Positions 9,421 through 58,555 of a stretch of DNA of 64,000 nucleotides are shown here, one piece after another. The position numbers were made by a program, and so were the translations under genes. Origin of the DNA: Chiloscyllium plagiosum (lineage: Eukaryota). Under the pieces are notes generated by a model. The model saw only the letters and a program-made list of their open reading frames with translations. It was not told the DNA's origin and made no database searches. The stretch lies in assembly GCF_004010195.1 (NCBI RefSeq), contig NC_057711.1, positions 53,557,222-53,621,221 of the forward strand, given 5' to 3'. The stretch's first letter is position 1. Each line of letters starts with the position of its first letter.

Positions 9421-11182
9421 NNNNNNNNNNNNNNNNNNNNNNNNNNNNNNNNNNNNNNNNNNNNNNNNNNNNNNNNNNNNNNNNNNNNNNNNNNNNNNNN
9501 NNNNNNNNNNNNNNNNNNNNNNNNNNNNNNNNNNNNNNNNNNNNNNNNNNNNNNNNNNNNNNNNNNNNNNNNNNNNNNNNNNNNNNNNNNNNNNNNNNNN
9601 NNNNNNNNNNNNNNNNNNNNNNNNNNNNNNNNNNNNNNNNNNNNNNNNNNNNNNNNNNNNNNNNNNNNNNNNNNNNNNNNNNNNNNNNNNNNNNNNNNNN
9701 NNNNNNNNNNNNNNNNNNNNNNNNNNNNNNNNNNNNNNNNNNNNNNNNNNNNNNNNNNNNNNNNNNNNNNNNNNNNNNNNNNNNNNNNNNNNNNNNNNNN
9801 NNNNNNNNNNNNNNNNNNNNNNNNNNNNNNNNNNNNNNNNNNNNNNNNNNNNNNNNNNNNNNNNNNNNNNNNNNNNNNNNNNNNNNNNNNNNNNNNNNNN
9901 NNNNNNNNNNNNNNNNNNNNACATACACATGTTACCATCTCACCTCTTCAAATGCCTTACCCATCTTCAAACAGGCAATGAGAGAAGCCATGAAGTTCTA
10001 GAGAGAGATACAAATCTTTGAAGGTGTCATGATAGGTTAACACAAAGCAGTTAATAAAGTATGAAATCTGGGACTCTATAAATAGAGGCTTACAGGCACA
10101 ATTTGAACTGAATTGTCCTCACCCAGGAAGTGGGTCAGTCTAATGGTAAGAAGTAGCACCCACATATTGTAGACTTTAACTTCAACAAGTGTCACTGATG
10201 TCACTAGATTCTTCCCTGTTCAGACACCAGCTGAGCCTTCACTCAGAGGGGAAACCAGCCAATGATGGCCATAGCAGCATTTAGTCTCTGCTGTGGAAAG
10301 AGTGCTGATGGGGTGGCCCAACAAGCATGAGTATCTTGGCTGATTAGTGAAGGGGATGGGGGTCAATGGTATAATGTCTGACAGTGTTTGAACTTAAGAA
10401 ATTACTAGAGAGATAAATGAGCAGAGGTATTGATTGGAGGAGGGGGTGGGCCTGATCCAGTCCAGGACAGGGATGGTTGATCTGAGTAGGTGAAAGAGGG
10501 AGTCTTGGTTGGGTAAACTATTGGTCCCAAATACAGGTTGGAGGCCTCATATTGGGACAACTAGAGGACTTGGGGCCATGTGGAAATTTGGAGACATCAG
10601 AAGACATTAGGATATTTAGGGTGAAAAAGATTGGTGAATGGATTGGAATCTGAGGGAAGAGGTCAGATGTTTCTCTGTGTGGGCCTGGTATTAGAAGTCT
10701 AGGAATAAAAATTGGAGGCTGGAGAATGTATAACTGGAGATTTTGAGAGATGTAAGGCTGGGTTTAGAGAACAGGTAGAAGGGAAGGGATTGGGCCCTGA
10801 GAATGGAGGAGGGTAGAGGTCTCTTGGTGAGGATGGGGTTTTAGAGGACTTGGGGGTGTGGAGTTTTCAAAGTTCTGGCAGAGTTTGGTGTCTTAGAATT
10901 GGGGAAGTCAAGGGTCTGGTTGGGTGTGTTGAATCAGAGGCCTGGCAATGAAATTCGAAGGTCACTGTGGGATTACTGTGGGTGCGTGTGAGGCTGTACA
11001 AGGGGCTGCTAGAGACAGGTCACTTCACAGAAGCAGCAATCAGGCCCCACAGATCAAGGATCTCCTGATTCCACCAAATCCCTATCTTGAGGAAGCTGCT
11101 GGGATTATCTGACATTCAGGAAACCAGCTGACAGTGCTGAAAGCTTCAAACGTGAATTAAAATTGGGACCACAATCTCACAG

Positions 11183-11323
11183 AGAGAAAGTGAGGACGGT
11201 AGATGCTGGAGATCAGAGTCCTCTACAGACTCATTCCTGATGAAGGGCTTGTGCCCGAAACATCGATTCTCCTACTCCTCAGGTGCTGCCTGCCCTGCTG
11301 TGCTTTTCCAGCACCATACTCCC
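11183..11323 (+). mobile_element. 141-bp Penelope-like mini-insertion with hammerhead core
   Basis: Perfect 16-bp direct repeat GACCACAATCTCACAG (11167-11182, 11324-11339); core CTGATGA-a-GGGC-ttgt-GCCC-GAAA-cATC at 11237-11264; shares its first ~37 nt with the 1457 element. Confidence 0.8.
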
Positions 11324-11580
11324 GACCACAATCTCACAGTTATACTTCCAAGCTCCAAGCTTGGAAGCTCTGAATTCTTGCTTTAAGTTCCAAGCTCTCT
11401 CTTTAGAAATGCCATCCAGTTAATTACCTTTTGACCTCCTGGAATTGGAATCAGATTTGGTTGGGAAATGGAAATTTGAGGCTATCCTTTTACTCAACTC
11501 AAACCAACTCTTTTTTGTTTAACCTGAAAATCAACTCATGGAAGGCAAAAGCCAGGGAGTTATGGTAAACCTATAGTAAC

Positions 11581-28014: not shown

Positions 28015-29679
28015 GTATTACGTTTTAATGTAGAGGGAGGAAAAACAAAGTGCAGAACGATGTCTACTATAAATAGTAAAGTAAGATCAATTGCAGTTTA
28101 AAGTTCTAAGAGCCCTTGAGATGTAAGAAAAAGCTGAGTCCTTGTTATTTGGTTGTTAACTTGTTTCTTCAGCAGTGACAAAGTTTGCTGACATCCTTGT
28201 GTTTGTGAATGGCTGTTGTCTCAATTTACTTTTTATAAATGGATGAAGCACATCTGCAGTGTTTCACTAGTATCAATCCAGATTTCAGATACCTTTAAAT
28301 CAACCTGCTATGATGTATCATGACATACTTCTAGAACAGCTGGGACTTGAACCTGGGCCTTCTAGCTCAGATGTAGGGACACTACCACTGTCCCAAAGCA
28401 ATACTTGTTCATTATTATTACACAATCTTATTTCTCTCTAGTCAAGTGATTATGCAAACCCTTTCAGGTTAAACTTCTGTCTGTTTTTTTTCCCAAAAGT
28501 CACTTGTAGTCCATGAAAGGCATCTGTTCTGTATTGCTAATTGCCCTTGAGAAGCAGACTCACCAGCAGCTGCTCAAGAGCAATTAGCAATACAGAACAG
28601 ATTCTGTCCCTAAGCAGTTAAAAGATAAAACCAGCATAAGCCCGTTAGAACATAGAACAAAATAACCAATGGTGGTTTAACCGGAGGGTCACCACACCTC
28701 ATGAGGTTAGGAGAATCCTTCATGGTAACTCAGCTGATGCAAAAATTGAACCTATGCAGCTGATGTTACGCTTGATCAAAACCAGCTGTTCAACCAACTG
28801 AGCTAACCAACTCCCAATCCATAGCCTAAGCAGTAACCCCTAACAAAAAAAACCTTAAGCCAAACTTTTGCTCAGTCAATTACAGAATTGTAATGACTGC
28901 CATTATAGTAAAACTTCTCAACTCTGCAAATGCATGTTTATGAGTGGTTAGTAAAAAGACAAAGCACAAGAACGACGCATTTAAAGTTCCTTCTCATCAT
29001 ACAGATGTGTGCATAATTAGAAACATGGAAATGGACAGTCATTTACATTCAAAATATGGAAAGATATGGAGAGAGACACAACTGTTTATGGGAAAAATAT
29101 GGCTTTAAAATTTCACACAGTTAAGTTGTACTCGTGTACACAAAACAGAAATTCAGAAAAAGACAAGAATGTTCTTGGCAGTACTTTTTTTTATTATAGT
29201 TGAGGTGTGTACTGGTAAAATACAAATTACTCCATACAGAATGTAAAGGTGAAGTGGAAGAATAACTTCAATGTGACAGAACATTATTAAAATAGTATTA
29301 CACCAAGTTGGTGCAGCGAGCGGAGTACAATAGAATATGGCCCAACTATAAAGACTTGTTAACCATGACATTACTTAACCAACCAAACATTCTGAAACAG
29401 ACAGTTATGGAAGATCCAATTCAGATCTACGTGTGTTCCAACTTTTGTACAAGTCCTAATGTCATTACTGGCATTTGGCTGTTGTCCTTATATTTTGCTG
29501 TACTCCATCTTCAAAATTGATCAGGGTTATAATGAAGTGGCAAATGGTAATCATTTAGCTTAGAATATTGAGTGCTTGAAACTGAAACAGCAGAACAATA
29601 ACAGTAGTGTATTATGGAGAAGTTAAAATATATTTGTTTTAACATGCTGATCAACATGAAATAGAAGTCACAGTTTTAC

Positions 29680-37739: not shown

Positions 37740-39226
37740 CTGTATTTACTCACGTACAGGTCAATGTATAAGTTGACCTCTTATTTTGCCCAAAAAATCT
37801 TGTATTTTTCATACATTTCATGTATACGTTGACCATACTACATTGCATTATAAACCTTTTACAAAGGAAACTGCATGTTCCCATTAACTTACTTTGCTGA
37901 AATTTCAGATTTTTTCAAAAATATTTCTTCATTAAGCAGATTTTAAGTCAATGTTCCCATTAACCCACTTAAACAAAGTCACATTCATTTATTCATACTG
38001 GTAACTTTATTCATCACTCTTTACTTACTACCAGTCTATCGCATGCCCATTCATTAATTCATAACTCTACTTACAGCACTTTGAATGAATCAAAATATGC
38101 TGTAGTAAACAAAATGCTGTAAGTAGAATTATGGATGAATAGAGATGCGATATAGTAACCAAAGAGCAATGAGTAGAGTTACCAGTCTGAACAAACGAAC
38201 GAATCATTCAGACTGGTAACTCTACTCATTGCTCTTTGCTTACTATATCGCATCTCTATTCATTCATAACTCTACTTACAGCACTTTGTTTACAGCATGT
38301 TTTGATTCATTCATTCAGATCGGTACTAAGTCGATTGGTACTTATTGCACTTTGTTCACTATACAGCCAAAAGTTAATATTGTTAAAAAGTTAATAATTT
38401 TAATTGAACCATTATATCTGAATAAAAGTGTGAATTATATTAACTACATACCAGTATATCTTTAATTCTTTGACATTTCATTATATTGCTTTGTTCAGTT
38501 CCAAAACAATTAGGAATAAGATTAAATCCACTCATGTAGAGGATTTTACAGGATACCTTGTTCCTCTTAAAATCCAATTTTGTATTAATCAGCATTGATG
38601 TAATTATTCTAAGTTAACTTACAATTAGTACTCTCTTCAGAATAATAGTGTGGGCGTGCAGTCGAAGTTTCATTTATTTAATTCGAGCACAGTTTGTTGA
38701 GCGAGCTGCTTTGTAACAGTGTCCCCTCACCCCCCCCAAATCAGTACTAGGCTACAAACCTCCAGTGCCTTCCATCAGCACAGCCCCACACAGGTACACA
38801 GTGGGCAGGCAGTGCTGGTCACCGGTCTCCAATTATATCACTGCCTGCATGTCTGCCTGCTTGATGGACAGGCTTGCAAGCCAATCAGAGCTGTGGCTTC
38901 TGGACAAGAAACTCACCCATCCAACCATCAGAGAGAGACTGGAACTCCATGTACTGCGTCAGAGAATGTCGCAAATTGAGGAAAGTTTGTGTTCCTGACT
39001 CAGACCCGGCAGGAAGATGGACAGTAGAAAATTAGCATTCAGTAACTATTAAGGATTCTTCTTTATCTGGGATTAGTTGCGCGATCAAATAGACTTCTAC
39101 TAATAATACGGTATTTCGAACTACAGCATGAATGTCAGCCCCTCGAAAACAATACCATGTATATGTCAATTCTCTAATTTCAGCTTTAAAGTCTTCAAAA
39201 TTCGACCTATACACGAGTATATATGG
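37740..39226. mobile_element. Non-autonomous Tc1/mariner (pogo/Tc2-like) DNA transposon relic in RIOK2 intron 7
   Basis: TA on both flanks; degenerate TIRs CTGTATTTACTCACGTACAGGTCAA vs (reverse complement) CCATATATACTCGTGTATAGGTCGA; subterminal ATGTATAAGTTGACC-type repeats; no transposase ORF seen. Confidence 0.6.
38082..38312. repeat. ~110-bp-arm inverted repeat with 15-bp spacer
   Basis: 38082-38191 is the near-perfect reverse complement of 38207-38312; a diverged third copy lies at ~37985-38083. Confidence 0.92.
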
Positions 39227-44920: not shown

Positions 44921-45420
44921 NNNNNNNNNNNNNNNNNNNNNNNNNNNNNNNNNNNNNNNNNNNNNNNNNNNNNNNNNNNNNNNNNNNNNNNNNNNNNNNN
45001 NNNNNNNNNNNNNNNNNNNNNNNNNNNNNNNNNNNNNNNNNNNNNNNNNNNNNNNNNNNNNNNNNNNNNNNNNNNNNNNNNNNNNNNNNNNNNNNNNNNN
45101 NNNNNNNNNNNNNNNNNNNNNNNNNNNNNNNNNNNNNNNNNNNNNNNNNNNNNNNNNNNNNNNNNNNNNNNNNNNNNNNNNNNNNNNNNNNNNNNNNNNN
45201 NNNNNNNNNNNNNNNNNNNNNNNNNNNNNNNNNNNNNNNNNNNNNNNNNNNNNNNNNNNNNNNNNNNNNNNNNNNNNNNNNNNNNNNNNNNNNNNNNNNN
45301 NNNNNNNNNNNNNNNNNNNNNNNNNNNNNNNNNNNNNNNNNNNNNNNNNNNNNNNNNNNNNNNNNNNNNNNNNNNNNNNNNNNNNNNNNNNNNNNNNNNN
45401 NNNNNNNNNNNNNNNNNNNN
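44921..45420. other. Assembly gap (500 N); other gaps at 9421-9920 and 13082-13532
   Basis: Runs of N, each abutting a retroelement. Confidence 0.99.
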
Positions 45421-56049: not shown

Positions 56050-56990
56050 TTTTCCCCCCCATCTGCTTACTTCAGAAGATCCTTCCAGTTATTCAATTTT
56101 ATCTGTTCCAATGATGCTACCTACGTAATCAGTGCTTCTGATACATCATACTTTTTCAACTAAGGATTCCATTTTTTCAGTTGACAGGATCCCAGACCAT
56201 GTTCATGACATTTCCTGCACTTCCAAGCTCACCCTTTTAGCTCTCTCCCAGAATTGCTCACCTCATCTTCATCTTCCACCCCAAGGGCTCCAAGTTCAAC
56301 GGATCATCCATCATTTCCACAATCTTGATGCCACCAAACACATCAACCTCCCCTCCCCTTTCAGCATTCAGATGGACCATTTCCCTGCAGCACTTTGACC
56401 TGTCACCACAACATCCCCAAGCCATCCCATCATACCTTGTGATACCTTTTTAACCTTCTTTCCTAGTGTCCAGGGACCGAAACACTCCTCCTAGAATGAA
56501 GCAGCAATTTACTTGTCCTCCTTTTAAGACAACAATGCAATTCTCTCTACATGAAGGAGACCAAACATAGATGGGCAACTGCTTTGTGGAGCAGTTTAAA
56601 ATGGCAAGATTGAACTTCCAGTGAGCCATCATTCTAATTCTTACCAGACTCCCATCTGGCCTCTGTCCTCAGCCAGCTACATCTCCGCTAAATCACAGCA
56701 TAAGCTTAAGGATTAGTACCTCATCTTTAAATTATGTACTTATTGAGTTTTTGGACTCATTGACTTCCGCTTATTTCAGATAGCCATTAACCTTATATTT
56801 CAGTCAGCAATTGTTGGCAATGATGCATCCCTTTAGGTATTTGCGCTTTCCATGCTTCCTTTTTCTTTCCTTCCTCTGTTTTAATAACTTCCTTAAAAGC
56901 CGTTTTAGCTCTTAGCTGTTTCCAGTTCTGACAAAAAAAAGTTAACATTTTTTCTTTCTTCGCCGATACAGTCTGAGAGTTCCACATTCA
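56050..56990 (+). mobile_element. Decayed Penelope-like element 3' part (GIY-YIG endonuclease relic) in RIOK2 intron 1
   Basis: Frameshifted motif string near 56500-56730 resembling FTC...LYIGETKRRLGDRFxEH...PVAxHFN...EQHLIF of Penelope-like GIY-YIG domains; read by eye. Confidence 0.6.
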
Positions 56991-57380
56991 CTGAGACATG
57001 AAGTACTAAAAAATGATTAACATGACGAAAATATTCGTCGGAAAAAGTCAGCGTTATATTTTAACGATTGTCTGTAACATAAAACGTATCAAGAATATGT
57101 TCGCTTCCTCCCCTCCTAGAAAAGTGGCAGACATAGAATCAACAGATAGGGCAAGTGATTCATTATTCAGCAATTTTTAATAAACTCCATTTATAACAAA
57201 AGGCGAAATTATGCTGATAGGGTAGTATATCCCAGCGTCTTTACAAAACAGAAGGATTTGACACAGGGATACCTCCTCGTGATAAGTCACGCAGCCCCTT
57301 CTGTAATCATATGCGAACTTCAATCAAGTACAAGCGGGACTCTGGAGTGAAATAACAACAGGCCCGGACCGGCAACTTAC

Positions 57381-57446
57381 CCCAACCAGCACTCTGAAAT
57401 CATCTCTCTGCAGGTACCTCAGCAACACTACATTCAGCTTTCCCAT
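57381..57446 (-). CDS. RIOK2: RIOK2 (RIO kinase 2) coding exon 1
   Basis: Manual translation MGKLNVVLLRYLQRDDFRVLVG (66 nt) followed by donor GTAAGT; closely resembles the vertebrate RIOK2 N-terminus ([22 protein letters not shown]). Confidence 0.96.
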
Positions 57447-57605
57447 CGCTGCGACCGGGATGAGAAAACTGGAATTTCAATCCGTTTATGCTAGAGTATG
57501 GAGAGACAGAAAACCCAAGGCCTTCCGGAACTACCAGAAGTACCGGGCCGACTCGACTGCACATGCGCACTCACTACCAGGTCCTCGAAGATACTTAATA
57601 AAATT

Positions 57606-57790
57606 CAAAGTTAAAAATCACACAACACCGGGTTATAGTCCAACAGGTTTAATTGGAAGCACACTAGCTTTCGGAGCGACGCTCCTTCATCAGGTGATTG
57701 TGCTTCCAATTAAACCTGTTGGACTATAACCCGGTGTTGTGTGATTTTTAACTTTGTACACCCCAGTCCAACACCGGCATCTCCAAATCA
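57606..57790. mobile_element. Penelope-like mini-insertion: perfect 58-bp inverted repeat with hammerhead core in the loop
   Basis: Arms 57606-57663 and 57699-57756 are exact reverse complements. Near-TSD TAATAAAATTC (57596-57606) / TAATAACATTC (57791-57801). Confidence 0.8.
57660..57702 (-). ncRNA. Minimal type I hammerhead ribozyme motif
   Basis: Minus strand reads cac-CTGATGA-a-GGAGC-gtc-GCTCC-GAAA-gc-TA-gtg: intact core, 5-bp stem II, palindromic AGCT in place of stem III, CUA cleavage triplet. Confidence 0.72.
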
Positions 57791-58109
57791 TAATAACATT
57801 CACAATTCGGTCGAAACAACAAGCACGATCTCTAAAGACTTGTACAGCATATGATTTTAATGTTATGATTTGAAACAATGACATTATGATTTAAGTACGG
57901 GTCCAATAGGCATGTTTCGCTGTGTTAGGTTTGTGTTTTATGTGCTGCCAGGGCCTGGGGACGGTTGGTGTGTTTGAAGGCAGTTGGGCTCGCGCACTCG
58001 GATCGCTGATCTTCGGAGTTTATCCCGGTCACAGGTTACACTCATGTCCTCCTTCAGAAACAATAGGGGCCAAGGTCTGCAGCCGAAGATCCCGGTGCGT
58101 ACTTATCCG

Positions 58110-58555
58110 TTATTAGTACACAATCCCTTGGACTGAAGATGACTTTCCTCCACTCCGCTGTTGTAAAGTTGTTGGATCCGCAAAACCCTGCCACAGGTGG
58201 GGCAGGCGGTGTTTGCTGGGACACTTGGGCTTTTGCATTCTACATTCCACTTGGTCTTCATCGATAGCTTTCGCAGACAGTTGGCCTTTTCATGGGGATG
58301 CTTTTCCAATTTGGGCTTACAATTCCCGATAGTCAGTGGATGGGGAAATTGCATTTCTTTTAAGGAAGGCTTTGAAGATGCTTTCGAAACGTTTCTTCTG
58401 CCCTCCTGCTAATGCCTTGTAGAGGAAGTGGTTCAAGGCAGCTCCGAAAAATTTGCAGTATCGCCACGGCCTGAAACCCAAGACTTTCCAATTTGGAGTA
58501 GAAGCACCTGCGATTTGCCAGTACAATGTTATTAACGTAATTATAGTGGGCACTG
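58110..58555 (-). mobile_element. RTE (BovB-like) LINE 3' fragment
   Basis: GGQKKRFESIFKAFLKR (ORF 58317..58562) and CPTCGR (ORF 58103..58354) are typical of RTE C-termini. Confidence 0.7.

Follow-up and report, generated by a model that had tools for sequence, protein, structure and literature searches.

A minimal hammerhead in a perfect 58-bp fold-back upstream of bamboo shark RIOK2 as a probable truncated Penelope-like insertion

Upstream of RIOK2 in Chiloscyllium plagiosum, a perfect inverted repeat encloses a hammerhead ribozyme core, raising the question of whether the gene has recruited a regulatory device or merely carries the residue of a mobile element. In the window (the whole 64,000-nucleotide stretch of DNA analysed here), the structure is very probably what a Penelope-like retroelement (PLE) of the endonuclease type left behind: a short insertion, truncated at its 5' end and with an inverted-pLTR build, in which the hammerhead is passive cargo.

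The ATG at 57446 (minus strand) begins a coding exon of 22 codons, with matches to RIO2 kinases of solved structure, and the remaining RIOK2 exons extend leftward to about 31960; a variable RIOK2 exon matches the RIO2 of Chiloscyllium plagiosum at 100% over 165 aa and that of C. punctatum at 94–95%. The C. plagiosum protein (P0001) and the C. punctatum protein (P0002) differ at about residues 168–195, a part for which the window contains no exon; an N gap (44921–45420) lies between the RIOK2 exons, and one exon is probably lost in it. The arms of the hairpin are situated 160–310 bp upstream of the ATG, the distance already given in an earlier note on this DNA, and the total insertion spans 160–345 bp upstream. 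The ETS and NRF1-like motifs described there are likewise present, with the ETS core at 57525/57528 and the NRF1-like site, the sole one in the window, at 57559–57568, both between the insertion and the ATG. Furthermore, the insertion sits mid-way in a CpG-rich stretch (about 56900–58500), in agreement with the proposed location in the RIOK2 promoter. The features of the locus are as follows:

56900..58500, CpG-rich stretch, the richest in the window (o/e about 0.55–1.3 against 0.24 overall)
57381..57446, minus strand, first coding exon of RIOK2, with a GT donor at 57380
57525..57568, unstranded, ETS-core and NRF1-like motifs, consensus matches only
57596..57607, plus strand, left copy of the target-site duplication (TSD), AT-rich; its last 2 nt overlap the left arm
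57606..57663, minus strand, left arm, the 3' portion of the pLTR copy that carries the hammerhead, with the boundary that lacks a tail at its end
57665..57693, minus strand, minimal type I hammerhead core, with the predicted scissile bond between 57665 and 57664
57694..57698, minus strand, 5 nt upstream of the core, with the 5' truncation point of the sense copy and the native 3-bp stem I strand
57698/57699, head-to-head junction
57699..57756, plus strand, right arm, a second, inverted, 5'-truncated pLTR copy without the core
57757..57791, plus strand, tail of 34–35 nt, in the plus-strand copy only, outside the hairpin and inside the TSD
57791..57802, plus strand, right copy of the TSD

The two inverted arms (57606–57663 and 57699–57756) are 58 nt each and 100% complementary around a 35-nt spacer; coordinates and complementarity, when recomputed, came out the same as first described, and the chance expectation for such arms is about 7e-27 per window. 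On the minus strand, the loop reads CTGATGA-a-GGAGC-gtc-GCTCC-GAAA-gc-TA, as previously stated, with the core running from 57693 to 57665. Positions C3–A9 start at 57693 and are followed by a single additional A, a stem II of 5 bp closed by a 3-nt loop, and GAAA, while the 3' part of the core is constituted by a palindromic tetramer and then H17, the A at 57665. All published traits of the minimal hammerhead (min-HHR) are present, namely the core, the extra nucleotide after A9, G10.1–C11.1, the palindromic 15.2–16.2 and the short stem I, which upholds the earlier reading of a PLE-type minimal type I hammerhead. When a strict descriptor of the minimal hammerhead was applied, 3 sites were returned from the window versus 0 from 200 simulated windows. 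The Rfam search that the earlier note put forward as a check returns no hammerhead family in the window at E up to 10, and no family of any kind at gathering score; no hammerhead match would be expected there, because the motif is devoid of stem III. A match to the MIR860 microRNA precursor (64.1 bits versus a gathering threshold of 89) was rejected as a match of shape, and one to the snoRNA sR14 at E 1.2 as a match of shape or chance.

The hairpin is predicted to be very stable as RNA, at −127 kcal/mol (z −19.7), and reaches about −72 kcal/mol as single-stranded DNA. Each arm contains an ATTAAA polyadenylation-like hexamer (57653 on the minus strand and 57709 on the plus strand), approximately 12 nt past the cut site. 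In addition, the minus-strand tail opens a 33-codon upstream ORF (57791–57693).

The boundaries of the unit reveal how it is built. The flanking repeat, originally described as an 11-bp near-TSD, is real, with only 9 of 20000 random position pairs matching as well, and its length is 12 bp with 1 mismatch (57596–57607 and 57791–57802), so that the transposon-like TSD is borne out. The hairpin is not placed symmetrically in the TSD, in that 35 nt (57757–57791) separate the right arm from the right TSD; this tail, which the earlier note had overlooked, possesses no partner sequence on the left side. By orientation, the unit comprises two copies of the same 3' end, arranged head-to-head with their 3' ends outward. 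The minus-strand copy starts 5 nt before the core and runs to 57606, and the plus-strand copy starts at 57699 and runs through the right arm and the extra 35 nt. The total insertion is 186 bp without an ORF remnant, and the two longest frames across it contain no Pfam match and no ORF with reverse transcriptase (RT) and GIY-YIG. The unit is very probably a 5'-truncated PLE insertion, and it is not an autonomous PLE.

Perfect palindromes can also be generated by chimeric reads, and with 3 N gaps in the window an assembly or library fold-back artefact has to be considered; however, the nearest N gap is 12 kb away, and neither the tail at one end only, nor the 35 nt of unshared core, nor the 12-bp TSD would be created by an artefact. 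A sibling at 1211–1443, whose arms have diverged to 80%, is also built in this way, and an artefact is barely credible as the origin of the structure.

The window contains three more insertions of the same build, derived from another family, each with a hammerhead core or its decayed form, an outward one-sided tail and a TSD of 13–16 bp:

1216–1443, two decayed cores facing away, head-to-head; 97-nt arms matching at 80%; the plus copy bears the tail
1457–1569, inverted tail preceding the core-bearing copy
11183–11323, inverted tail preceding the core-bearing copy; core at 11237

The hairpin within this older sibling (1216–1443) spans 1211–1407, with its arms decayed to 80%. The sibling TSDs are 13 bp with one mismatch (1216–1443), 13 bp perfect (1457–1569) and 16 bp perfect (11183–11323; bracket 11167–11339). 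The three sibling tails are mutually related (for every one of the 3 pairs, 0 of 500 shuffles reached the observed score), and the RIOK2-side tail shows no significant relation to them in the same shuffle test (97, 209 and 25 of 500 as high). The junctions differ among the three siblings, and stem II lengths differ between copies. One 13-mer occurs three times (1203–1215 with one mismatch, 1444–1456 and 1570–1582) and brackets two adjacent PLE-like insertions, as if one target site had been used on two occasions with an identical stagger. The truncation point of the core-bearing copy lies only approximately 3–16 nt upstream of the core in each of the four insertions (57698, 1308–1310, 1510–1513 and about 11222), which suggests a preferred stop or a transcript start ahead of the ribozyme. 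Two other hairpins were searched for a hammerhead core and yielded none: a large AT-rich one at 37984–38313, whose 87-nt arms match at 95% around a spacer of 15 nt (89% over 236 nt) and which has another decayed copy on its left side, and a short one at 28522–28602 (85% over 82 nt).

Among the five matches to a query with a 33-codon antisense frame, one, the record P0049, is a translation through a related copy. It is identical to the element at 24 of 33 residues over the tail and the arm and at 10 of 12 residues over the antisense core, after which it continues with unrelated residues and not with a mirror arm. P0049 carries tail, arm and core in one line; therefore, the family has these parts in collinear order, and the fold-back is a peculiarity of the RIOK2 insertion. 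From this one record, known via its translation, the tail appears to belong to the element. The other four matches (P0046–48 and P0050) are multi-stretch, low-identity alignments to repetitive proteins and were set aside. A blastn search of the 64-kb window for a second copy of the RIOK2-side family yielded only short AT-rich chance matches, antisense translations of the element gave no match in word-indexed searches of proteins, and an exact 20-mer scan of bacterial and archaeal genomes yielded 0 matches, a result that is uninformative for a shark repeat. Repeats like the RIOK2-side insertion are probably common in bamboo shark assemblies.

These relatives also bear on the idea that the palindrome moves as a unit in its own right, as a non-autonomous element of MITE-like or retrozyme-like type that is multiplied with its structure unchanged. 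Long perfect inverted repeats with a TSD would suit such a unit, and PLE-derived non-autonomous elements are reported, including one chondrichthyan case in the available part of bioRxiv 10.64898/2026.07.22.740005. However, on the side of the tail the inverted repeat does not reach the terminus as it would in a MITE, with 35 nt lying between the right arm and the TSD, and the unit forms no tandem array, as a retrozyme would. P0049 has the same parts without the fold-back, and the sibling family shows three different junctions, as expected from independent truncations. A fixed non-autonomous unit is therefore extremely improbable.

The favoured reading of a truncated inverted-pLTR insertion would operate in the following manner. 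The endonuclease of the element would cut both strands, approximately 9–12 bp apart, at an AT-rich site upstream of RIOK2, and the pLTR RNA would be reverse-transcribed from both sides of the cut, with a distal start site giving the tailed copy and a proximal start site giving the tail-less copy. Both cDNAs would end early and then be joined head-to-head; we propose that the perfect inverted repeat surrounds an unshared core because the truncated cDNAs joined in this way share 58 nt. The two-sided order of priming is inferred by analogy with the Anolis biochemistry, in which, according to the sections of Frangieh et al. that were available (PMC11167929), the PLE protein carries out cutting and extension on each of the two strands, at AT-rich ATT sites, and the tail corresponds to the segment that separates two RT start sites. 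Similar structures have been described in other PLEs. PLE insertions whose 5' end adjoins an inverted copy, itself 5'-truncated, and which often have a 30–40-bp tail at one end only, are reported in the accessible text of Craig et al. (PMC8557442), and inverted pLTRs with 8–10-bp TSDs, an optional 31-bp tail and head-to-head as the most frequent arrangement in that of Arkhipova et al. (PMC3846280). In the parts available of Cervera and de la Pena (PMC4209133), the minimal hammerhead is defined and counted in coelacanth and Xenopus, where a genome contains thousands of them; most are truncated copies that stand singly, and some lie close together on opposite strands. In the published literature covered, which lies mostly outside subscription papers, Repbase and Dfam, no description of these shark PLE families was found, and they may be undescribed; Penelope is reported in the whale shark in one passing mention in the available text of PMC8455134. 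The same literature yielded no hammerhead at RIOK2, and supplementary lists may still hold shark hammerheads.

Whether the ribozyme could work in this setting can be approached by fold prediction. In the monomer, stem II forms (p 0.98–0.99), stem III has p 0, as its loop would have only 2 nt, and in stem I the three pairs nearest the core reach p 0.13, 0.09 and 0.04, these low values arising because the best register of the arm leaves a 4-nt bulge beside the core. In a double hammerhead, stem I joins the upstream strand of one molecule to the downstream strand of the other; therefore, both 58-bp hairpins must be exchanged, and the fold-back competes with the active form. On energies that cover secondary structure only, without tertiary contacts or protein help (which the Anolis PLE hammerhead needs in order to cut, according to the accessible text of Frangieh et al., PMC11167929), two hairpins are favoured over the active double hammerhead by 6.5 kcal/mol, and the best duplex, whose two molecules pair with each other through their stem II sequences, is favoured over it by 16.8 kcal/mol; the arm lowers the cost of the double hammerhead to about +5 from about +20 kcal/mol for an arm-less copy. 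The earlier notion that the arms extend stem I into a long clamp is thus not supported, given a monomer without stem III, stem I pairs at p 0.13–0.04 and a dimer hindered by the fold-back. By analogy with known inverted-pLTR insertions, the arms would be a by-product of insertion, and on these models the ribozyme is more likely silenced by the hairpin than reinforced by it. Hammerhead activity at the RIOK2 locus is accordingly predicted to be unlikely, yet possible.

The locus could nevertheless have been exapted, with the same insertion now regulating RIOK2 by cleavage of read-through RNA, by small RNAs or by a promoter cruciform. The insertion lies inside the CpG-rich promoter region, approximately 40 bp from the NRF1-like site, its arms and core are intact, and the hairpin is very stable both as RNA and as single-stranded DNA. 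Several observations speak against it. In the modelled folds, the monomer cannot form stem III and the dimer is hindered by the hairpin. A 35-nt spacer disfavours cruciform extrusion. Divergent transcripts of CpG promoters run opposite to the gene, which here would place them on the plus strand, without the core. A Pfam scan of 13 frames, 10 of them upstream of the element, gave a single match, a LINE RT; therefore, no read-through source is evident within 6 kb, and no upstream protein gene was found that could act as one. A hairpin as stable as −108 kcal/mol combined with an upstream AUG would be poorly tolerated in a housekeeping 5' UTR, and for this reason the RIOK2 transcription start site (TSS) probably lies between the insertion and the ATG, with the hairpin outside the mRNA. 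At shark mutation rates, the intactness of the unit requires no selection. According to the available sections of PMC4209133, single min-HHR motifs show no cleavage in vitro and dimers only low cleavage. Exaptation is very unlikely. Under the reading of a truncated PLE insertion, the models predict that the hammerhead is most likely silent at this locus, and the insertion, which we assume to be neutral, would be tolerated upstream of the TSS.

The CpG-rich stretch continues for approximately 700 bp past the insertion, away from RIOK2 (57800–58500), with a CCAAT box at 57903; 8 frames in this interval have no Pfam match, and a divergent promoter or lncRNA is possible there. A sigma-70 promoter scan was discarded as not applicable to a vertebrate.

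The age of the insertion had been judged from the zero mismatches between the arms, taken to imply a young or homogenised repeat. The 0 of 58 mismatches give a 95% upper bound of 5.0% divergence, which, at the rate of 7e-10 per base per generation reported for the related epaulette shark in the available part of PMC10587355, corresponds to up to 36 million generations. The TSD carries 1 mismatch in 12, and the sibling arms have decayed to 80%; therefore, arms of this kind are not generally homogenised here, and the original conclusion does not follow. The RIOK2-side insertion is younger than the 80% sibling, and recency is not required.

The position of the junction raises a further possibility. 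At its 5' end, the tail-bearing arm corresponds to the mirror image of position 1.2 of the hammerhead, which lies one base beyond the predicted cut, as though this arm had been copied from hammerhead-cleaved PLE RNA, with the reverse transcriptase running off the 5' end of the cleavage product. Such a template is doubtful: of the four insertions in the window, the three siblings start elsewhere and only the RIOK2-side one starts near the cut site, the fit is off by one base, and it was noticed after the fact. The complementarity of stem I would also offer microhomology at the same spot, as an alternative source of the junction. For the Anolis PLE, Frangieh et al. (PMC11167929) report that hammerhead cleavage is dispensable for insertion in vitro and that no RNA-seq read ends fall at the cut site. 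If the cleaved template were real, hammerhead-cut RNA would serve as the template of PLE insertion, and a junction common to many copies of the family would constitute a genomic fossil record of PLE hammerheads cutting in vivo. The single scar matters little: 64 kb contain at least four PLE scars that bear hammerheads, this one included. It carries a warning that, in DNA of fish, sharks or reptiles, a perfect hairpin enclosing a minimal hammerhead is usually a product of PLE insertion. Shark PLE scars are short and numerous enough for junction statistics to provide a DNA-only test of the use of cleaved RNA in PLE insertion.

Among known systems, the domesticated genomic hammerheads HH9/RECK, HH10 and those of rodent Clec2 possess a full stem III, are active as monomers and are conserved. 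The RIOK2-side motif resembles these examples (named, with the rodent Clec2 motif in the 3' UTR, in the available part of PMC6155905) in its position near a host gene, but has no stem III and no Rfam match. Non-LTR retrozymes share with it a type I hammerhead of likely PLE origin; unlike these tandem repeats, the RIOK2-side unit is single and inverted, with a TSD and a tail, and none of the 4 short arrays detected in a tandem-array scan of the window coincides with it. Metazoan PLE min-HHRs, as presented in the accessible text of PMC4209133, have the same intact core, extra nucleotide between 9 and 10.1, G10.1–C11.1 pair, palindrome at 15.2–16.2 and short native stem I (3 bp), and likewise no stem III; what sets the RIOK2-side core apart from the typical forms described there is its enclosure in a 58-bp fold-back, a 5-bp stem II at the short end, and its occurrence as a single copy at the locus without an in-cis partner. 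The closest likeness is to the inverted-pLTR insertions of EN+ PLEs (Penelope/Poseidon and Neptune, as in Adineta vaga Pen2a and Anolis Poseidon), with which the unit shares head-to-head 5'-truncated pLTRs, a 30–40-nt tail at one end, a TSD of approximately 10 bp, an AT-rich target and a hammerhead in the pLTR. Unlike them, it is extremely short (186 bp) with no ORF remnant, has the core in one copy only, and has an inverted copy that starts one base past the cut site. The anatomical features of the RIOK2-side insertion are all already published for PLEs.
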